NCBI GenBank assembly: GCA_964611745.1
Contig: CAZTBE010000004.1
Span: 1-53,322 of the forward strand
Direction of reading: 5' to 3'
Length of the DNA stretch: 53,322 nt
Source of the DNA: an uncultured Methanosarcinales archaeon
Lineage (GTDB): Archaea > Nanobdellota > Nanobdellia > Woesearchaeales > GW2011-AR4
Below the pieces are notes generated by a model, which was given only the letters and a program-made list of their open reading frames with translations, had not been told where the DNA came from and did no database searches. The translations under genes were made by a program, and so were the position numbers. Below, in pieces: positions 3,230 to 30,625 of the stretch (position 1 is the stretch's first letter; the number at the start of each line of letters is the position of its first letter).

Positions 3230-4651
3230 ATGAACTGGAAAACTTTATCACATTCAAGCACCCAAAAAATAGAAGGTATACAAAACAAGAAATTAAGATA
3301 TTTTATACAGCACAAAATACCATTTAGTCCTTATTACAATAAATTATTCAAAAAAAACAAAATAAATTTTTCAGATATAAAAACAGTAGATGATTTAAAG
3401 AAAATTCCTTTTACAATAAAAAAGGATATTGCACCAACAAAAAACAAACCAAAAAAACATGCTGATTTTATTCTACAGCCAACTAAAGATACAATAAAGA
3501 AATATTCATCAAAATTAGATTTATTGAAATATTCTTTAAACAAAAATTCTGTCTTTAGTGAATTCAAACCAATTCATTTGCATTTTACAACAGGAAGGAC
3601 TGCTAACGCTGTACCGTTTCTTTACACATCTTACGATTTAGAAAAATTAAGAGAAGCAGGAAGAAGAATGATGGACATCGTTAATGTTGGAAGAGGTGAT
3701 AAGTTAGTAAATGCTTTTCCTTATGCACCACATCTTGCATTCTGGGCCACATTTTTTGCAGCAGAAGCTATTGAAATATTTGCAGTGCATACAGGCGGTG
3801 GGAAAATTTTAGGTACAGATAAGATAATAAAAACTATTGAGAGTACAAAAGCAAGCTTATTGGCCTTTATTCCAGGCTATGCATATCATTTATTAAGAGA
3901 GGCAAAAAACAAGAAAGCTAGTTTTAGCAATGTTAAAAAAATATTTTTTGGAGGTGAAAGAGTTCCAAAAGGATTAAGAGAAAAAATAAAAAGCATGCTA
4001 ACAAGCTTAGGAAGCAAAAATCCAGAAATATTTGCAACTTATGCTTTTACAGAAGGAAAGATTGTATGGGCAGAATGTAAAGAAAATTCTGGTTACCATC
4101 TTTATCCTGATATGGAATTTATTGAAATAATAGATAAAAATGGAGAAAATGTTGGAGAAAATGAGAAAGGGGAGATTGTTTATACAGCATTAGACTTTAG
4201 AGGAACTGTTGTTTTAAGGTATAAAACAGGAGACATTGGAAGCATAACAAATGAAAAATGTGTTTGTGGAAGAACAATTCCAAGATTAAGCTCTGAAATC
4301 GAAAGAAGCTCTGAAATTAAGGAATTCAATCTAACAAAAGTAAAAGGCACATTAGTTAATTTAAATGCCTTTTTTGAAATATTAAACATAAAAGAAATAG
4401 AAGAATGGCAAGTGGAAATCAAAAAAAAGAACAATGATCCATATGAATTAGATGAATTAGTTGTTTATATTGCCCCTAAAAAGAATATTGATTTTATTAA
4501 ACTAAAATCTAAATTAAAAAATTTATTAAAAGAAAAATTAGAAATTACTCCAGAAATTATTAAAATTGACTTAAATAAATTATTAAATAAACTGGGAATG
4601 GAAACAGAGTTAAAGGAAAAGAGGATTGTTGATAATAGGACTAAAACTTGA
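3230..4651 (+). CDS. Adenylate-forming enzyme, phenylacetate-CoA ligase / coenzyme F390 synthetase family
   Basis: TTGRTANAVPF corresponds to the SSGTTG AMP-binding loop of PaaK-type enzymes. YAFTEG and RYKTGD are ANL-superfamily motifs. Confidence 0.6.
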   Translation: MNWKTLSHSSTQKIEGIQNKKLRYFIQHKIPFSPYYNKLFKKNKINFSDIKTVDDLKKIPFTIKKDIAPTKNKPKKHADFILQPTKDTIKKYSSKLDLLKYSLNKNSVFSEFKPIHLHFTTGRTANAVPFLYTSYDLEKLREAGRRMMDIVNVGRGDKLVNAFPYAPHLAFWATFFAAEAIEIFAVHTGGGKILGTDKIIKTIESTKASLLAFIPGYAYHLLREAKNKKASFSNVKKIFFGGERVPKGLREKIKSMLTSLGSKNPEIFATYAFTEGKIVWAECKENSGYHLYPDMEFIEIIDKNGENVGENEKGEIVYTALDFRGTVVLRYKTGDIGSITNEKCVCGRTIPRLSSEIERSSEIKEFNLTKVKGTLVNLNAFFEILNIKEIEEWQVEIKKKNNDPYELDELVVYIAPKKNIDFIKLKSKLKNLLKEKLEITPEIIKIDLNKLLNKLGMETELKEKRIVDNRTKT

Positions 4652-5306
4652 CTAATACGGCCCTTATAGGACTTCCATCTCCATCTTTAACCTTTAAAGG
4701 CAGCCCAATAAAGAAATATCTTCCAGCTTTAATTTTTGACAGCTCAAGTCCCTCAACAACTGGAATAGTTTTATTAAACAATATCTTATGCGTCTCATGC
4801 CCTGCTTGATTCCTTTCAATACCCAAATTATCAATCCCAATTAATTTTATTTTTTTATTTGCAAGAAATTTTGCCCCTGTTTTATCAAGATAAGTAAAAT
4901 TCTTATTAAATTTTTTCAAAGCCCTGTTTCTGGTTTTCAACAATACAATATCGTTCTTTTTTATTATTAATCTTTTATTATTAATTTTTTTAAATGTTTT
5001 TTTATTGATTAAATCATTGAAATCTTTTATTGTAATTTTATTTTTTATTGAAGAAAAATCCAAAACAACACAATCCCCCATAAACTTGCCAACATCCATA
5101 TTTTCCATTGTTTTTCCTTTCGCAAGCATATGAAAATAAGCATCAGCATGCGTCCCTGTATGACTCTCAATCTCTAACTTAGATTCATTAGCATTATCTC
5201 CTTGCTTTAAGGCACTTGTAATCTTTATCTTTGGTCTTTTTTCTTTCTTATCCTTGTAGATAGCCATATCTTCCCTTATCTCCATAGAAATATCATAGAT
5301 TTTCAT
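4641..5306 (-). CDS. Putative cyclase / kynurenine-formamidase-family metal hydrolase
   Basis: HTGTHADAYFH matches the HxGTHxDxPxH metal-site motif of the cyclase family. Its ATG (5306-5304) overlaps the zwf TGA (5305-5303) as ATGA. Confidence 0.65.
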   Translation of the reverse strand: MKIYDISMEIREDMAIYKDKKEKRPKIKITSALKQGDNANESKLEIESHTGTHADAYFHMLAKGKTMENMDVGKFMGDCVVLDFSSIKNKITIKDFNDLINKKTFKKINNKRLIIKKNDIVLLKTRNRALKKFNKNFTYLDKTGAKFLANKKIKLIGIDNLGIERNQAGHETHKILFNKTIPVVEGLELSKIKAGRYFFIGLPLKVKDGDGSPIRAVLVKF

Positions 5307-8634: not shown

Positions 8635-10098
8635 TTACTTTGTTACTTTACCAGTCAAACTCCTCAACATATGCCCAGTAATCTCCAAATCATAAAATTT
8701 CTTTAACTCTAATCTGCCTTTAACACCAACAACCAGTGGATAAGTTCCAAACTGCCTGCAGAAAGTAGTATTGCCGTCATAAATCTCTGTATAACAATCT
8801 TTAAGCACAACACCTTTTGGAGCAATTCTTTGAAGCATTGGCCAATCAATTTTCTGCCTTATGTCATTTCTCCATTTCCAATAATATTTTCTATTCTTTT
8901 TCAAAAATTTATTCCCGCATTCCTTAAAAAGTGAAGTTCCCTCAAATATTGCAACCTGCCTTATATTAATCCTGCGCAGCATTAAGCCATCATCATAAAT
9001 CTTCTTTAGCCATTTCATATTCTCTTCATGAGTTTTTTTGCTTTCCTCTTTCAACCCAAAAATTAAGTTGATGCCGGGTAAGTATTTAGGCATTCCATTT
9101 TCTCCTCTTTCTGCGCCATACTTATTAAGGATTTTTATAGCCTCATAAGCTATTTTTGGAGAACTGTTCAGCATATTTTCTTTAACAACAACTTCATCAA
9201 AACTCTCAACTCCAAAGGCAGCTATATTTCCAGGAGTACAATATTTAACAATAGCTTTAGTTATTTCATGATTTTTATCTGCAACAACCTTTACTGGATT
9301 TACATTATCTATATGTAAAACTTTTATGTCCTTACATTTTTTTCTAATCTCCTTTAAAAGCCCAATAGCCTCTGGAAAGGTATAGAAACAATTCTGTTTT
9401 CCCAATCTAAAATACCTGCAGCCTAATTTATAAAATTCAATAATTTCTTTCAAAATATCCCCTTTATCCCTGAACTCAACATTGTTTTTTAACGGCTCTA
9501 TACAAAAGCTGCATTTCCCTACATCACATCCATGCCCTGTCTCAATCTCAATCATCCTGTAATCAGGAATCTGTGTAACAATTTTTGCCCCATCGACTGC
9601 ATATTCTTTAACCTCATCATAGGGAAAATTAAACATTTGCTTATTAACATCATCAAAAACATCTAAATCTGCTTTCTCAAAAAACTTACCGCCATGCAAC
9701 TGGGTGCCAAAAACAGCAGGCCCTGTAAGTATTTTTTTGCATTTGAGGTCTTTAATTAATGGTATAAGCTCTTTTAAGGTTCCAGGCATTGCAGAAAGAT
9801 ATTTCCCAGGAACATGAACACCTAAAACAACAATTAAAGTATCAGTTTCTTCCAATATTTTTTTAATATTCTTATAATTGATTGTTAAATTGTATATTTT
9901 TATATTTGTTTTTTGAGACGATTTTGTTTCTTTTAATGTAGAATTATATTTTTTCCATAACCTTAAATCGTCAATTGTCAAATAATTAACATCCTCATTA
10001 AGATAGCCAGCTATATACCTTGGATATGCCCCTAAATAAGGTGGAACTCCTAATCCTGCTGGCTCATCAGTATAGCAGTCTAAAATTGTATATCTCAT
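8635..10098 (-). CDS. Radical SAM protein with an N-terminal Rossmann/B12-like domain
   Basis: The cluster motif GHGCDVGKCSFC has Cx4Cx2C spacing. The start was moved to MRYTILDCYTDEPAGLG (ATG 10098-10096), because the upstream 30 codons of the ORF look like promoter DNA. Confidence 0.7.
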   Translation of the reverse strand: MRYTILDCYTDEPAGLGVPPYLGAYPRYIAGYLNEDVNYLTIDDLRLWKKYNSTLKETKSSQKTNIKIYNLTINYKNIKKILEETDTLIVVLGVHVPGKYLSAMPGTLKELIPLIKDLKCKKILTGPAVFGTQLHGGKFFEKADLDVFDDVNKQMFNFPYDEVKEYAVDGAKIVTQIPDYRMIEIETGHGCDVGKCSFCIEPLKNNVEFRDKGDILKEIIEFYKLGCRYFRLGKQNCFYTFPEAIGLLKEIRKKCKDIKVLHIDNVNPVKVVADKNHEITKAIVKYCTPGNIAAFGVESFDEVVVKENMLNSSPKIAYEAIKILNKYGAERGENGMPKYLPGINLIFGLKEESKKTHEENMKWLKKIYDDGLMLRRINIRQVAIFEGTSLFKECGNKFLKKNRKYYWKWRNDIRQKIDWPMLQRIAPKGVVLKDCYTEIYDGNTTFCRQFGTYPLVVGVKGRLELKKFYDLEITGHMLRSLTGKVTK

Positions 10099-26215: not shown

Positions 26216-26307
26216 TTTTCAAAACATTTAAACAGCGGAAAAGTTTGCATTAGCAAACTTTTCGAGCTTAAATGTCTTGAAAACCTCACGTTTTCAAAAC
26301 ATTTAAA
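26216..26307. promoter_or_regulatory. Operator-like repeat set in a divergent promoter region
   Basis: TTTTCAAAACATTTAAA occurs at 26216-26232 and 26291-26307. An inverted copy with one mismatch lies at 26268-26283. A perfect 11-bp hairpin lies at 26238-26263. Confidence 0.45.
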
Positions 26308-26546: not shown

Positions 26547-28301
26547 TTACTTTTTTTGCTTATTATAAAGACTTTCTACTATTTTTAATGTAGAAATATC
26601 ATCAGGACTTCTGTCCTGCCTTAATTGTATAATGCGAGGAAAGCGCAACGCAAATCCGCTGCTATAAGTCGGGCTTTTTTGTATCTCTTCATAAGCTACT
26701 TCTATGACAATTTTAGGTTTAGGTATTACTTCTTTTCCTTCTTCTTTCTTTATTAAAGGCTTAAGCAAGTCTGTCATTTCCGCAAAACTCAATCCTTCTT
26801 CCCTCTTTTCCTTAAGCCCTGTGCTTGCCTTTCCAATTTCAAGAAAATTGCATTCTTTATCTCTGCATGCTAATGTGTAGCTGCTTAACCATTTTGACCT
26901 CTTACCTTCCCCCCACTCTGCTTTTACAATAACCAGGTCAAGATTTTCTTTTGTATCTTTTAACTTGACCATAAAACCAGCTCTTGCTCCTGGCTTGTAA
27001 GGAGCATCAAGTTTTTTGATCATAAGCCCTTCATTTCCGGAATCAACAGCTTCTTTGTAAAAATCCTGAACTTCTTTTTTGTCTGAAGTTACAATACTCC
27101 TTGCAATCTTGATTTTCTTTGGAACATTTTTAATTATCTTTTTAATTATCTTTTTTCTTTCCTCAAAAGGCTCATTGATAACACTTTTGTCTTTGTAGTT
27201 TATCACATCAAAAACATTTACCTCAACTGGAAACTCCTGAGACATCTTTTCAATATCATATTTCCTCTTTATTCTCTGGGAAATATTTTGGAATGGAAGG
27301 TATTTGCCAGTTTTTGTACTGTAACCAACTGCCTCAGAATCAATAATGACTTTTTTTTCATGAACAAACTTCCTTACACAATCTACAACTTCTGGAAACT
27401 GCTTAGTGACATTTTCTAATCTTCTTGTAAATACCTTAATTTCATTATTATTTTTATGTATCTGCATCCTCATACCATCATATTTAAACTCAAATTCTGC
27501 TGGCTTTCCACATCTTTCAAAACCCTCATCAATATCTGCAACTTTTAATGCGAGCATTACCTTCAACGGCACTCCAACATTCATTTCCATTTCATCAAGG
27601 CCTTTAAGTCCATGCTTCTTTGCTGCCTCAGCTACTAGAGCAAAATCATTTGTTATATCGTAAGCACGTTGCACAGCATCAACATATTTATTGTAATTTT
27701 CTCTATCTTCCATCTCAACATTATTTTCTTTTTTATTGTAATTTACTTTAATCTCCTTGCCAAAGAATGCCCATACAATAGCATCTCTTATGCTTCCCTC
27801 TCCAACTCCTATGCGCATATCATTAAGAATTGTCCTTACAATATACTTAGCTTCGTTAGGCTTTGCAGATGTTAAAAGTTCGGCTACTAAAGATATTTTT
27901 TTATCAACAGAACCTTGCCCTTCAATTGTGACAAGTTTTCTGAGATTGTTAAGAACTTTTTTTACAGTAAGCTCATGAGAACCTAATGTATGCTGTTTTT
28001 TTTTCTTAATTAAATTATGGGAAACGGTTCCTAAATCTCCAGTTTTCTTCCATTCTGAATTTACTCTTTCTTTGGATTCTCCTGATGCCACACTAATAGC
28101 CTTAAGCATCATCTTTGATGCCATTCCAATTTCCCTTTCATCCCATCTTGGAAAAACTCTTCCTTCCATCAAAAGAATTGTTGTTCCCAAATCCACTATG
28201 CTTACATCTTTCAGAAATTCTGAAATAATATGGACATGCCCAAGCCTCTTTGTTGTACTTTCCAGAGCATCATACACATCCGCAAGTTTCGAGTATTGCA
28301 T
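26547..28301 (-). CDS. lig: ATP-dependent DNA ligase
   Basis: The adenylation motif I is EFKYDG. The 584-aa archaeal/eukaryal Lig1-type architecture ends in a typical C-terminal OB-fold sequence (LRFPRIIQLRQDR). Confidence 0.95.
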   Translation of the reverse strand: MQYSKLADVYDALESTTKRLGHVHIISEFLKDVSIVDLGTTILLMEGRVFPRWDEREIGMASKMMLKAISVASGESKERVNSEWKKTGDLGTVSHNLIKKKKQHTLGSHELTVKKVLNNLRKLVTIEGQGSVDKKISLVAELLTSAKPNEAKYIVRTILNDMRIGVGEGSIRDAIVWAFFGKEIKVNYNKKENNVEMEDRENYNKYVDAVQRAYDITNDFALVAEAAKKHGLKGLDEMEMNVGVPLKVMLALKVADIDEGFERCGKPAEFEFKYDGMRMQIHKNNNEIKVFTRRLENVTKQFPEVVDCVRKFVHEKKVIIDSEAVGYSTKTGKYLPFQNISQRIKRKYDIEKMSQEFPVEVNVFDVINYKDKSVINEPFEERKKIIKKIIKNVPKKIKIARSIVTSDKKEVQDFYKEAVDSGNEGLMIKKLDAPYKPGARAGFMVKLKDTKENLDLVIVKAEWGEGKRSKWLSSYTLACRDKECNFLEIGKASTGLKEKREEGLSFAEMTDLLKPLIKKEEGKEVIPKPKIVIEVAYEEIQKSPTYSSGFALRFPRIIQLRQDRSPDDISTLKIVESLYNKQKK

Positions 28302-28341
28302 ATTAAATTACAATATTAAGAAGTTTAAAAATATGTCGAAA

Positions 28342-28620
28342 TGTACGTTCCCGATTTTACGTTGCCGTAAAACACTGTGGGGTGCTTTGCACCCCACTAC
28401 TAGTGTTCAGTTGTACGTTCCCGTACAACAGTATGCAATGCTTTGCATTGCACGATCCAAGACGGATTAGTACGTGTGGTACGAAGTACCACACACTGGT
28501 GTGCAGGAATGCACAACAGTGTATAGGGATGCTTTCAGCATCCCGAGACTGAGCATTCAAAAGAGTCCCGTTTCGGGACGTCGCAGACGTCCCCAGACGC
28601 TGTTTTACGGGCACGTAAAA
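28342..28620. repeat. Array of ten perfect GC-rich stem-loops (unclassified)
   Basis: Hairpins lie at 28355-28372, 28377-28397, 28411-28428, 28434-28452, 28474-28494, 28500-28515, 28526-28544, 28565-28579, 28575-28593 and 28603-28620. The 12-mer TGTACGTTCCCG is repeated at 28342 and 28412. Confidence 0.6.
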
Positions 28621-28657
28621 CAATAGATTTATTAATAATAAACTCAAGAATATACTT

Positions 28658-29320
28658 ATGGAAGTATTTGACGCTATAAGATCAAGAAGAAGCATAAGGA
28701 AATACAAGGATAAGCAGGTTGCATGGGATAATATTGTCACAATAATGCAGGCTGGCAAATATGCTCCTTCTGCAGGTAATCTGCAGAATTGGAAGTTTAT
28801 TGTGGTCAAGAACGATGAGACAAGAAAAGCCATTGCAAAAGCTTGTCTGCAACAGGAATGGATGGAAGTCGCTCCTGTTTTTATTGTAGTTGTTGCAGAA
28901 CCGGAAAAAGCTGAAAGATATTATGGGAGCAGAGGCGCAAGGCTTTATACAATACAAGGATGCTCTGCTGCAATAGAAAATATGCTTCTTACTGCTCATA
29001 GTTTAGGATTAGGAACCTGCTGGATAGGGGCTTTTGATGAAGATGAGATTTGGAGAGTTCTTGGACTGCCGGAAGAAAAATCAGTGCAGGCTGTTATTAC
29101 AATTGGTTATGCTGATGAAAACCCAGAACCGCCTCCCAAGTATAGAATAGAGCATATGATGTTTTTTGAAAAATGGTGGGGCCGCTTGGAATTTCCAAAA
29201 ACACATCTTGGTTGGTGGAGTGCAGGCAATAAAAGAATAGTAGATGAAGGCAAGAAGTTAGCCAAAAAAGTCCATAAAAAAGTCAAAGAGCATGTTAAGA
29301 AAAAGTTAAGTAAAAAGTAA
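28658..29320 (+). CDS. Nitroreductase-family flavoprotein with a Lys-rich C-terminal tail
   Basis: RRSIRKYKD, PSAGNLQNW and LGLGTCWIG are nitroreductase motifs. The tail is KKLAKKVHKKVKEHVKKKLSKK. Confidence 0.85.
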   Translation: MEVFDAIRSRRSIRKYKDKQVAWDNIVTIMQAGKYAPSAGNLQNWKFIVVKNDETRKAIAKACLQQEWMEVAPVFIVVVAEPEKAERYYGSRGARLYTIQGCSAAIENMLLTAHSLGLGTCWIGAFDEDEIWRVLGLPEEKSVQAVITIGYADENPEPPPKYRIEHMMFFEKWWGRLEFPKTHLGWWSAGNKRIVDEGKKLAKKVHKKVKEHVKKKLSKK

Positions 29321-29365
29321 ATTACTATTTCTTATTTACTAAATAAATAAAAAACAGAAATATAT

Positions 29366-29447
29366 CTCAGTCTCGGGATACCGTAGGTATCCCAATACGC
29401 TGTTTTACGGGCACGTAAAAAAATAAAAAAATCCCTCTTGCGAGGGA
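29366..29447. repeat. Hairpin modules downstream of the nitroreductase, sharing sequence with the upstream array
   Basis: CTCAGTCTC plus GGGATACC-GTA-GGTATCCC lies at 29366-29393. ACGCTGTTTTACGGGCACGTAAAA at 29397-29420 is identical to 28597-28620. TCCCTC-TTGC-GAGGGA lies at 29432-29447. Confidence 0.55.
29421..29447 (-). terminator. Hairpin plus T-tract (minus-strand sense), candidate distal ftsZ terminator
   Basis: The minus strand reads TCCCTCGCAAGAGGGA followed by TTTTTTTATTTTTTT. Confidence 0.45.
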
Positions 29448-29504
29448 CCAAATGCCTCCATACTTAAAAACGTTGGGGGTGGTTTTCTTAGAAATGAAGG
29501 CATA

Positions 29505-29527
29505 GAAAAAAACACCTAAAAGGTGTC
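29505..29527 (-). terminator. Hairpin plus T7 tract, candidate ftsZ terminator
   Basis: The minus strand reads ACACC-TTTTA-GGTGT followed by TTTTTTT, ~22 nt after the ftsZ stop. Confidence 0.5.
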
Positions 29528-29548
29528 ACCACAAAGACTAAAGGGTGA

Positions 29549-30625
29549 TCATTCATCTAGGATTTCTATACCGAGTTCCTCACTTATTTGTTGAACCTCC
29601 GGACTTGCCGCAAGTGGCTTTTGCTTGCCCAAGATACATGGGCTCTTTACACCAGTTACGATTGTCATTACAGTAAGCTTTCCTTTCATATCTTCTGAAA
29701 TTCTGGCTCCCCAGATGACATTTGCATCTGTATCTAAACTTTCTGTAACTAATTCGCCTACTTTGCTTATCTCATCAAGTGTCATATCAGGACCACCTAT
29801 TACATGCAACAAAGCTCCGGTTGCACCTTTGTAATTGATGTCCAGAAGCGGATTTTGCAAAGCTCCTTTTACAGCTTCTTCTACTCTGTTGTTTGTATCT
29901 GAAGAACCCACACCAATAGCTGCTACTCCACCATTCTTCATAATTGCCCTTACATCCGCATAATCCAGGTTAACTAAGCTTGGCACTGCAATAGTTTCCA
30001 CAATACCTTTTATCATTGTTGCTACAAGCTCATTAGCTACTGCAAATGCTTGTTGTATTGGCAAATTACCTGCAATATTGACTAATCTATTATTGTCAAT
30101 TACAATCACTGTATCAGAAACATCTCTTAGCTGTTCCAAACCAAACTCTGCTTTATCTACCCTGGCTTTTTCAATTTTAAAAGGCATGGTAACAGTTCCA
30201 ATAACTATAGCACCAGTATCTCTAGCTACTTGAGCAACTATTGGCGCTCCACCAGTGCCAGTTCCTCCACCCATGCCAGCGCATACAAAAACCATATCAG
30301 ATTCTTTTAAACATTGTTTTAACTCTTGCAAGCTTTCTTTTGCAGACTCAGCACCTTTCTCAGGAAAACCTCCACATCCTAAGCCTCTTGTTACACCAGT
30401 CCCCAACAAAAATTTTCTGTCTGCATTTATTATATTCAAATGCTGCTGGTCTGTGTTACAGGCTAAAATCTCAGCCCCTTTAACACCTTTATTATATAGC
30501 CAACCAACCATATTGTTGCCAGCTCCCCCTACCCCTATAACTCTTATATTTGCTTGTCCTACATCTACACTTTCTACTTTATTCTCTTGGCTAGTTTTAA
30601 TTGCGTTTTCTACCAAAAAATCCAT
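29549..30625 (-). CDS. ftsZ: Cell division GTPase FtsZ
   Basis: The tubulin signature GGGTGTGGAP is present, together with VIGVGGAGNNMV and NVIWGARI. Confidence 0.95.
   Translation of the reverse strand: MDFLVENAIKTSQENKVESVDVGQANIRVIGVGGAGNNMVGWLYNKGVKGAEILACNTDQQHLNIINADRKFLLGTGVTRGLGCGGFPEKGAESAKESLQELKQCLKESDMVFVCAGMGGGTGTGGAPIVAQVARDTGAIVIGTVTMPFKIEKARVDKAEFGLEQLRDVSDTVIVIDNNRLVNIAGNLPIQQAFAVANELVATMIKGIVETIAVPSLVNLDYADVRAIMKNGGVAAIGVGSSDTNNRVEEAVKGALQNPLLDINYKGATGALLHVIGGPDMTLDEISKVGELVTESLDTDANVIWGARISEDMKGKLTVMTIVTGVKSPCILGKQKPLAASPEVQQISEELGIEILDE

Follow-up and report, generated by a model that had tools for sequence, protein, structure and literature searches.

A lineage-specific family of hairpin modules flanks a resident nitroreductase gene in a woesearchaeal genome and probably represents small, non-autonomous palindromic elements

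The window analysed here is a 53,322-nucleotide (nt) stretch of DNA from an uncultured archaeon assigned to the Woesearchaeales (positions 1 to 53,322 of contig CAZTBE010000004.1, assembly GCA_964611745.1), with a GC content of 32.9% and an archaeal gene content. Searches against Pfam identified an ATP-dependent DNA ligase gene (lig; 26547-28301, minus strand), a nitroreductase-family coding sequence (CDS) of 220 amino acids (28658-29320, plus strand; PF00881, E=1e-38) and ftsZ (29549-30625, minus strand), as well as an archaeal-type S15 gene and other housekeeping genes. The lig and nitroreductase genes diverge from a spacer of 356 nt, and the nitroreductase and ftsZ genes converge at their 3' ends. 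Homologues of the nitroreductase number in the thousands, those with names being from Candidatus Woesearchaeota and Nanoarchaeota (DPANN archaea), and an identical locus is found in 23 marine-metagenome contigs; ten of these were examined, and in nine the flanks are identical too. Copies of a short hairpin module that is dispersed over many other loci lie on either side of the nitroreductase gene, and the nature of this module family is the subject of the present work. Contigs and loci used for comparison are referred to by number (L009, L150, etc.).

An initial annotation of the sequence had noted a perfect 24-bp direct repeat (ACGCTGTTTTACGGGCACGTAAAA) on the two sides of the nitroreductase gene, together with an inverted hairpin-plus-tail, and both are present. 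The 24-mer is found exactly at 28597-28620 and 29397-29420, without a third match in the window at three mismatches or fewer (0 expected, 100 shuffles). It is part of a direct repeat that in full is 56 nt long with 80% identity (28570-28625 vs 29370-29425) and takes in two hairpins, the first of which displays paired, compensating substitutions (GGGACGTC-GCA-GACGTCCC vs GGGATACC-GTA-GGTATCCC). The inverted hairpin-plus-tail is longer than originally described, having 39-nt arms (28515-28553 and 29366-29404) that are 82% complementary. What the annotation missed is that the entire segment 28342-28620 is a mosaic of about ten perfect hairpins with stems of 7-9 bp and loops of 3-4 nt. The GC content of the lig-nitroreductase spacer is 47%, vs 33% for the window, and the spacer folds with z = -10.4 and -9.7 on the two strands; comparable hairpins are nearly absent from the remaining 52 kb. 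A scan of the window gave no Rfam 15 match at the gathering score, a scan of 28200-29650 at E<=10 gave weak chance matches only, and scans for tRNA and tmRNA gave no match.

The repeats are copies of a 55-nt module composed of a tail (cAGTCTC), a hairpin B (GGGnnnnn-GNA-nnnnnCCC), a 9-nt spacer (yATACrCTG) and a hairpin A (TTKTACG-GGnn-CGTAMAA). Across loci the tail varies as (c/a)GT(C/T)TC, and the spacer is either yATACrCTG or CAGACGCTG. A covariance model, R1, built from an alignment of 32 copies, identifies six copies in the window and none outside this locus. Five of them are found between the lig and nitroreductase promoters, in both orientations, and the sixth is located downstream of the nitroreductase gene. 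From left to right, the array begins with a truncated A-type hairpin fragment (TGTACGTTCCCG, 28342-28353), which is identical to 28412-28423, followed by two diverged units on the minus strand that point toward lig. The first, U1 (28355-28404; R1 score 31.2 bits, E=9e-8), has the hairpins A TTTTACG-TTGC-CGTAAAA and B GTGGGGTGC-TTT-GCACCCCAC, and the second, U2 (28411-28467; 29.2 bits, E=4e-7), has A GTTGTACG-TTCC-CGTACAAC and B TGCAATGC-TTT-GCATTGCA. Together, U1 and U2 form a tandem repeat with a period of 56 nt and 78% identity; the 41-nt stretch of U1 recurs at L156, L173, L187 and L204. Next to these is a weak extra unit on the plus strand (28470-28516; 20.6 bits, E=1e-4), composed of a hairpin with a perfect 9-bp stem (GTGTGGTAC-GAA-GTACCACAC) and an A2-type hairpin common to this unit and U3.

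The right end of the array is an inverted doublet, U3::U4, that spans 28499-28620. Its left half, U3 (28499-28553, minus strand; 50.6 bits, E=1e-13), carries the A2-type hairpin (GTTGTGCA-TTCC-TGCACAC on the minus strand), a B hairpin (GGGATGCT-TTC-AGCATCCC) and the tail GAGACTGAG. This unit is the upstream hairpin-plus-tail referred to above; L202 and L009 have the same B hairpin, spacer and tail, without a difference. The right half, U4 (28566-28620, plus strand; 77 bits, E=2e-21), is composed of a tail cGTTTC, the B hairpin GGGACGTC-GCA-GACGTCCC, the spacer CAGACGCTG and an A hairpin TTTTACG-GGCA-CGTAAAA; it holds the upstream 24-mer and points toward the nitroreductase gene. Between the two halves is a central spacer (CATTCAAAAGAG, 28554-28565), which recurs between inverted modules at an unrelated locus (L177/L213/L160). 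The downstream copy, U5 (29366-29420, plus strand; 79.8 bits, E=3e-22), is a singlet with the tail CTCAGTCTC, the B hairpin GGGATACC-GTA-GGTATCCC, the spacer AATACGCTG and an A hairpin identical to that of U4 (TTTTACG-GGCA-CGTAAAA), and it holds both the downstream 24-mer and the downstream hairpin-plus-tail. Some other interpretations of the array were considered and rejected. It is not a CRISPR array, as there is no regular repeat-spacer period and the units are found in both orientations. The minimum-free-energy fold, in which hairpins 1 and 10 pair, would suggest one large non-coding RNA (ncRNA) closed by this pairing, but both are independent family-A hairpins that are found singly elsewhere. 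Finally, a replication origin was rejected since the sign changes of the GC skew track the gene strand and orc1/cdc6 was not found nearby.

The modules are dispersed over many loci and restricted to one lineage. The search pattern ANNCTGTTKTACGGNNNCGTAMAA was built on hairpin A plus the terminal part of the spacer, with the inner five pairs of B and the K/M pair of A left free. It matched 66 metagenome stretches on many different contigs, about 55 of which display the full two-hairpin architecture. Together, the scan and the covariance model added about 70 distinct copies to those of the window, spread over about 50 unrelated loci. When applied to 365 kb of these metagenome loci, R1 gave 103 matches, with up to 4-5 per contig, and it gave none in 1.11 Mb from 83 related Woesearchaeota loci. 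The family pattern had no match in 2.9 million viral contigs; a looser A-hairpin pattern gave 52 viral matches, all of which were isolated chance matches without adjacent hairpins, and a viral or plasmid origin was rejected. The exact 24-mer is found at 18 other loci with 15 different right flanks, i.e., it is the conserved core of the module family. Copies that differ by one nucleotide from U5 are found at the unrelated loci L191 and L199, and such copies of U4 at L165 and L177. Because U4 and U5 belong to different subfamilies, each of which has a near-identical copy elsewhere, they arrived independently rather than as the ends of one unit; the bracketing of the nitroreductase gene is the outcome of two independent insertions. 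One of the module-bearing contigs, L150, encodes an Lhr-like helicase, and the named relatives are Woesearchaeota and Nanoarchaeota. Full-text literature searches gave no description of hairpin repeats in Woesearchaeota. A large census of MITEs (miniature inverted-repeat transposable elements) lists a "Woesearchaea genome" among the archaea that are richest in MITEs, which were not characterised (PMC11602168). At L009 (1760-1930), a contig that carries the exact nitroreductase of the window switches inside the shared module (window 28499-28553) to the upstream region of L202, with a DUF4443/HTH gene and a structured RNA candidate; this switch is a repeat-mediated rearrangement or a misassembly.

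The hairpins display strict Watson-Crick pairing with compensatory variation. From the two copies at the nitroreductase gene it had been proposed that the hairpin itself is maintained, and this proposal is borne out by the alignment of 32 distinct copies, in which 99.8% of the 480 stem cells are standard pairs. Six pairs covary, namely the K/M pair of hairpin A and each of the five inner pairs of hairpin B, with double-sided changes in 57 cells. This level of covariation was reached in none of 500 shuffles, and no slid register came near it. The K/M pair is T-A in 20 copies and G-C in 12, with no mixed cases, and the A variants A2 and A3 differ at three positions, on both arms. A count over 52 distinct full-length copies gave 750 Watson-Crick pairs, 9 G.T, 4 A.C and 17 other pairs, 11 of the latter being the outermost A pair of one variant. 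Because wobble pairs are nearly absent and both strands fold equally well, the palindromy appears to be maintained at the level of DNA rather than as a structure of RNA only. The loops of B are mostly GAA (17), GTA (9) or GCA (9), together 35 of the 43 determined, and are closed by a C-G pair. They thereby match d(C-GNA-G), which is a very stable DNA mini-hairpin motif (PMC13037366, PMC3201870). A second, longer B variant (GGGTGATTGAGCGTAGCGAACATCACCC) is common. Furthermore, at a site that is otherwise orthologous to L177 (933-987), a ~38-nt insertion composed of two hairpins (CCACCTCGCGTGG..., GGAGTG...CACTCC) is nested in the B hairpin of L160 (2403-2496), L152 (62-155) and L210 (990-1084). 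Modularity in this family thus exists at more than one level.

The array between lig and the nitroreductase gene is bordered by two TATA-like boxes. At the left insertion border, ATATTTTTAAA on the minus strand (28324-28334) is found ~31 nt upstream of the lig ATG at 28301, and at the right insertion border ATTTATTAAT (28627-28636, plus strand) is found 31 nt upstream of the nitroreductase ATG. They are presumably the core promoters of the two genes: a TATA-to-ATG distance of 30-32 nt is typical for this organism, the generic promoter of which is GAAAC-n-TTTATATA. The sequence of the lig box is retained in relatives without the array, and AAAACAATA[A/G]ATTTATTAAT is kept in all close relatives, irrespective of whether the insert is present. 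Empty sites are observed here as well as at two other positions. In L074, L077 and L075 the lig-nitroreductase spacer is only ~95-130 nt and contains both promoters but no array; the distance from the lig TATA region (TTTAAAAATATATC) to the nitroreductase promoter (AAAACAATAAATTTATTAAT) is ~20-45 nt, where the window has ~280 nt of hairpins. With ~20 nt free between the divergent core promoters of L074 and L077, any insertion that is tolerated would end right beside the B recognition element (BRE). Downstream of the nitroreductase gene, L013, L014 and L015 are without U5, which corresponds to an insert of ~75 nt. The third empty site is at the Lhr-helicase locus, where L150 and L226 (99% identical to L150) have a module, found in L226 directly before the helicase ATG, whereas the 92%-identical orthologue L224, with an otherwise well-conserved upstream region, has none. 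At this locus the empty site contains a single (G)TAAAA, and in the filled site the motif stands both to the left and to the right of the insert. In addition, at least six independent singlets have GTAAAA followed by YAT immediately to the left of their tail, far above the expectation from composition. This flank pattern, seen at one clean filled/empty pair and as a recurrent flank, suggests either a 5-6-bp target duplication or insertion beside a motif that matches the element's own end.

Modules are found as singlets, as tail-to-tail inverted doublets of ~125-135 bp with the A hairpins at the outer ends, and in larger mosaics. The commonest complete form is the doublet A-B-GAGAC-(6-14 nt)-GTCTC-B-A between divergent genes, the halves of which usually differ in their A and B variants. 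Tail-to-tail doublets are found at 13 of 51 loci (14 if U3::U4 within the window mosaic is counted), and singlets are mostly found between co-directional genes. The gene context could be determined for 30 loci, of which 14 are divergent, 13 co-directional and 3 convergent; U5 is one of these rare convergent cases. The placement is biased toward gene starts. For 68 distinct copies, the next start of an open reading frame (ORF) on the same strand was located relative to the end of hairpin A, with a mirror control for comparison. An ORF starts 0-2 nt after hairpin A in 15 copies (control 0), 3-27 nt after it in none (control 1) and 28-70 nt after it in 30 (control 5), such that 45 of the 68 copies face a gene start within 70 nt, vs 6 of 68 in the control. 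In the 28-70-nt class, hairpin A is followed by a BRE/TATA motif. Twenty copies have a strong TATA match, and in ten of these the TATA box begins 9 nt past hairpin A; the TATA-to-ATG distance in the strong-TATA copies is mostly 30-32 nt, i.e., the geometry of leaderless genes. Because this promoter motif is generic in the organism and pre-exists at both window promoters in relatives, it is not brought by the element. When a module abuts the ATG, its yATAC spacer falls at about -28.

The nitroreductase gene is an ordinary resident, syntenic gene outside the repeat family. The initial annotation had interpreted it as a gene cassette delimited by the repeats, an interpretation that does not agree with the comparative data. 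The gene is located between lig and ftsZ in relatives at 93, 87, 84 and 78% identity, and the same order is found in most of 80 species-level loci from genome assemblies, down to ~65-78% protein identity. Thus, a lig-ftsZ empty site, or another gene in this position, which a cassette would lead one to look for, is not what the relatives display; they keep the gene, without modules. Similarly, each of the 22 contigs that encode this exact FtsZ protein and extend sufficiently far has a nitroreductase gene beside ftsZ. That the gene is less AT-rich than its neighbours, as had been noted, holds in part: its GC content is 39.4% compared to a gene mean of 33.7% (sd 3.3; rank 3/50), but its neighbour ftsZ is at 39.6%. 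Its codon usage is typical, the distance to the other 49 genes being at rank 25/50. From GC content, codon usage and synteny a foreign origin of the gene was rejected. Pfam scans of the window ORFs of >=100 amino acids, and of one ORF of 64 amino acids, gave housekeeping families only, and no integrase, recombinase, transposase or HUH gene was found in the window. The structured mobility sites that had been envisaged are thus real in one respect: the modules act like mobile or recombinogenic DNA, being dispersed, absent from empty sites and crossed by joined contigs, yet they do not delimit the gene.

The borders of allele exchange at the locus do not coincide with the modules. In L011 and L012, the flanks of which are 99.5-100% identical to the window, 52 mismatches (~14%) are confined to a 380-nt tract (28870-29249) within the CDS, where the differing codons are synonymous in 31 cases and non-synonymous in 14. 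This tract is an imported homologous-recombination tract, the ends of which are unrelated to the modules. In L217 and L219, a window-type ftsZ (identical protein, 99.9% identity at the nucleotide level) is combined with lig and nitroreductase genes that are 81% identical, L074-like and without modules. The junction is found at ~29417-29510, at slightly different positions in the two contigs, within a conserved element that follows the ftsZ stop codon; these contigs are inter-lineage recombinants or chimeric assemblies. The modules were consequently rejected as borders of allele exchange, since one tract is internal to the CDS and the other junction is in the ftsZ 3' element.

From the above discussion, we conclude, with a probability of roughly 75%, that the repeats flanking the nitroreductase gene constitute a lineage-specific family of non-autonomous, non-coding palindromic elements, similar to MITEs or to repetitive extragenic palindromic (REP) sequences with their BIME and REPIN arrangements, and that they reside beside a resident gene. 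In such a scenario the doublet and three further units would have filled the ~20 nt that separate the lig core promoter from the divergent core promoter of the nitroreductase gene, and a singlet of another subfamily would have entered the region where the nitroreductase and ftsZ genes converge at their 3' ends. The modules would spread as DNA through a step that requires the hairpin, where single-stranded or cruciform DNA is possibly recognised by a trans-acting transposase. Such a step would be analogous to that of REP hairpins, which are recognised in single-stranded form by RAYT, and to that of the subterminal hairpins of IS200/IS605 (PMC6006769). Hairpin-templated correction of quasi-palindromes may contribute as well. 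Insertion would take place beside (G)TAAAA or A-rich motifs, and the bimodal position relative to genes would largely reflect survivorship: in a very compact genome only those insertions survive that spare the BRE/TATA-to-ATG geometry. Insertion between the TATA box and a leaderless ATG would be lethal for expression, the exception being a module that ends at the ATG, where the yATAC spacer may act as a weak substitute TATA box. Later co-option of some copies for regulation is possible.

A number of observations weigh against this interpretation. Pfam scans revealed no transposase or other mobilising gene in the window, and a regular-expression search for HUH/Y motifs in 550 ORFs from module-bearing loci, which is a crude and weak test, gave none. 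A clean target-site duplication is seen at only one filled/empty pair. Because the loci were chosen via hairpin A, the copy density is inflated and the conservation of A is partly a result of the selection. That the module-bearing contigs share the genome of the window is not proven; the basis for this assignment is shared samples, the join in L009 and the archaeal promoter geometry. At L190 and L181, a divergent doublet abuts an ATG on one side and leaves that gene in need of a promoter; no other one is visible, and these doublets are compatible with a weak promoter borne by the module. Finally, the tight spacing to the BRE/TATA and to the ATG could reflect a host function rather than survivorship alone.

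A more novel possibility, which we consider unlikely, is an archaeal mobile element of an undescribed kind that is tied to the transcription-start region. Such an element would keep to a fixed orientation when inserting by (G)TAAAA or by A-rich motifs that resemble the BRE, and it would carry an outward-directed, weakly TATA-like yATAC spacer at about -28. Its target choice might involve pairing of the TTKTAC end of the element with a GTAMAA in the target, which together would form hairpin A. If this were true, the element could take the place of the promoters of leaderless genes, reinforce them or supply leaders with two hairpins, i.e., it would be a portable promoter or upstream element that spreads in a reduced DPANN genome. 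An element-borne promoter was, however, rejected for the class of copies found upstream of a TATA box, since the nitroreductase and lig promoters are already present in module-free relatives. Among the ATG-abutting copies, 3 of 16 carry a CAGAC or CGGAC spacer and do not fit a module-borne TATA box.

Also unlikely is a cis-regulatory module of the host, in which a dimeric archaeal transcription factor with a large regulon would use hairpin A, a perfect palindrome of 18 bp, as its operator. This factor would activate when bound upstream of the BRE and repress when bound over the transcription start, with hairpin B as an accessory, and the nitroreductase gene, lig and the downstream unit would share the regulator. 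The fixed position classes, i.e., a TATA box 9 nt downstream or an ATG 0-2 nt away, the consistent orientation toward gene starts and the high conservation of hairpin A are all consistent with this proposal. Position-dependent activation and repression are known for the archaeal regulators SurR and TrmBL1, and the position classes resemble regulation of this type. However, close relatives lack these sites at their orthologous lig and nitroreductase promoters, where the core promoters are conserved, and so does the helicase orthologue. The half-sites covary perfectly, and the A2 and A3 variants change both arms, which is predicted by base pairing but not by independent recognition of half-sites. 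Moreover, operators do not come with extra variable hairpins, with tails, or with nested insertions and truncated fragments, and the genes that follow the modules have unrelated functions (ligase, nitroreductase, helicase, epimerase-like, candidate ncRNAs). The shared regulatory module mentioned as an alternative in the initial annotation thus comes closer to the truth than the cassette, but it leaves the lineage restriction and the empty sites unexplained.

We consider it improbable that the ~280-nt array and the downstream unit are structured non-coding RNAs, either as RNA genes or as leader or trailer elements involved in RNA stability, processing or translation. The very strong folding (z ~-10) and the covariation would be expected for such RNAs, and copies that abut an ATG must be part of the 5' leader if the native promoter is still used. 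Other lineages also have different structured inserts at this position, including a candidate ncRNA in L069. On the other hand, the commonest arrangement places the modules between outward-firing TATA boxes, such that neither gene would transcribe them, and both orientations are found within one array. In contrast to real RNA families, G.U pairs are nearly absent (9/780) and four A.C pairs are seen that would be such pairs on the other strand; both strands fold equally well, and there is no Rfam match.

The cassette, in which the nitroreductase would be a mobile unit bounded by integron attC-like or single-strand recombination sites, is hardly credible and has largely been refuted: the 56-nt direct repeats with their perfect 24-mer on both sides, the GC content above the window mean and a distant relative, L140, with its own direct repeats around the nitroreductase are set against synteny in module-free relatives and beside ftsZ in all 22 exact-FtsZ contigs, typical codon usage with a GC content equal to that of ftsZ, the lack of a recombinase in the 53 kb, exchange tracts that end within the CDS or the ftsZ 3' element rather than at the modules, and flanking modules of two subfamilies with near-identical copies elsewhere, while attC sites are single imperfect palindromes with extrahelical bases at each cassette 3' end and the modules are perfect mini-hairpins of 7-9 bp, in multiple copies, in both orientations and mostly 5' of the gene.

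Other structured elements are found at this locus and in its relatives. In L140 the nitroreductase (44% identical) is flanked by direct repeats of 31 and 23 nt (4208-4270 and 5039-5252), both copies of which end in a TATA-like GTTTAAAAA. A hairpin-rich insert of ~150 nt, with a fold z-score of -7.9, interrupts the downstream copy, and the repeats, which are unrelated in sequence to the window family, were found only there among the loci compared. Upstream of the nitroreductase promoter, the very beginning of contig L079 (27-90) holds three hairpins in tandem, with C-TTT-G loops, and L078 (1-180) has several AT-rich hairpins. A different conserved element that carries TTTAGGGGYGGCGGGTGGGAA resides in the lig-nitroreductase spacer of L013 (5500-5680), L014 (9815-9965) and L073. 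Its long-range stem covaries between species (GGGCTGTGCC/GGCACAGCCC vs AAAGCCAAGCAT.GCC/GGCCATGCTTGGCTTT), and its 3' end (CAGTCTGCTCTGGCAC) is vaguely like the module tail. A structured RNA candidate of ~190 nt is found at L009 (~1560-1760), in the lig-nitroreductase spacer of L069 (~9800-9975), and in L202 and L172, with a closing stem GGTTGGTGCG.../...CGCACCAACC and the motifs GCGTAAATTGCCAAT, GACCTGAGCAA and TTGCGAAGTTGAGA in common. It is located behind the TATA box that follows a module in L202 and fills the spacer in L069 (z = -6.2), and it has no Rfam match. The inter-promoter spacer between lig and the nitroreductase gene seems to be a recurrent landing place for structured inserts.

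The element directly after the ftsZ stop codon (29428-29548, minus strand) is outside the repeat family, and U5 abuts the A/T run of its terminal hairpin. It is >90% identical in at least 25 relatives, the proteins of which are only 65-87% identical. Its central hairpin has a loop, CACCCCCAAC, that is invariant. There is also a 5' hairpin (UCACC/GGUGA), and a U-run comes after the terminal hairpin, which has GNRA loops. Covariation is seen, G.U pairs fit the minus strand only and no Rfam family matches it; it is a candidate for a conserved 3' untranslated element of ftsZ or a small RNA of Woesearchaeota. Isolated long perfect hairpins, with stems of 12 and 11 bp, respectively, are found at 2522-2548 and 26238-26263, in or near intergenic regions, and are unrelated to the module family according to R1.

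Among known systems, the modules can be compared to the REP/BIME/REPIN sequences of Proteobacteria, which are mobilised by the HUH-Y1 transposase RAYT (TnpA-REP). Both are short, GC-rich extragenic palindromes in many dispersed copies, with stem subfamilies, singlets, inverted head-to-head doublets and mosaic clusters, and both are lineage-specific (PMC3733652, PMC6006769). G-C pairs at the foot of the stem are a further likeness. In contrast to REPs, the host of the modules is archaeal, and their unit is two different hairpins with a conserved spacer and a tail rather than one imperfect palindrome. The 5' GT[AG]G tag of REPs is absent, as the foot of B is preceded by GTCTC or GTTTC (no GTAG or GTGG in the 32-copy alignment), and the module stems are perfect, 7-8 bp long, with loops of 3-4 nt. 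REPs are mainly found after 3' ends or between convergent genes, whereas the modules are found upstream of genes or between divergent genes, and no RAYT was found in the window or by the HUH/Y search in the 550 module-locus ORFs. The CGTC-tagged REPs (Di Nocera et al. 2013) are also similar in that they have an 8-9-bp stem after a short tag, form mostly head-to-head dimers and have no dedicated transposase identified; part of the module copies carry cCGTCTC directly 5' of hairpin B. However, CGTC is present in a minority of the module copies, the others having AGTCTC or AGTTTC. The module stems begin with GGG rather than with the A-T pairs of the CGTC REPs, the loop is 3 nt instead of 4-5, and CGTC REPs have been described only in five bacterial phyla.

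The likeness to MITEs is that the doublet is a non-coding unit of ~125-135 bp, within the 50-500 bp range, with long terminal inverted repeats, empty sites in relatives and a short flanking direct repeat at one filled/empty pair, and that it resides near gene starts with possible effects on promoters. The Correia elements of Neisseria are MITEs that affect promoters. In the module family, however, the doublet halves are usually heterologous, singlets and mosaics are as common as doublets, it is the hairpins within each arm rather than the identity between arms that are conserved, and no parent insertion sequence is known. The BOX elements of Streptococcus pneumoniae are small modular repeats (boxA-boxB(n)-boxC) located close to genes in intergenic regions, where they form stable stem-loops. 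Their modular stem-loops and variable number of modules resemble the present family, but their sequence is unrelated, their host is bacterial, and the BOX modules are not individually perfect hairpins; to our knowledge, they have no fixed spacing to core promoter elements. The module family therefore finds its place among the small non-autonomous palindromic repeats: it functions like REP/BIME/REPIN mosaics and MITEs, yet fails the features that define the REP-RAYT system.

DPANN archaea have tiny, gene-dense genomes that are thought to be poor in repetitive DNA. Against this background, the module family is active-looking, with copies only one nucleotide apart at unrelated loci, and structurally constrained. 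Repeats that bracket a gene are, by themselves, no evidence for a cassette. The modules fragment or chimerise metagenome assemblies, as illustrated by L009, which is joined exactly inside a module, and they could mislead the annotation of promoters and ncRNAs. At the same time, they offer a natural experiment on how much extra DNA is tolerated by the archaeal core promoter and the leaderless start, as copies are found upstream of the BRE/TATA or abutting the ATG, but never between the two. If the hairpins are recognised as single-stranded DNA, the family would point to a mobilising enzyme in Woesearchaeota.

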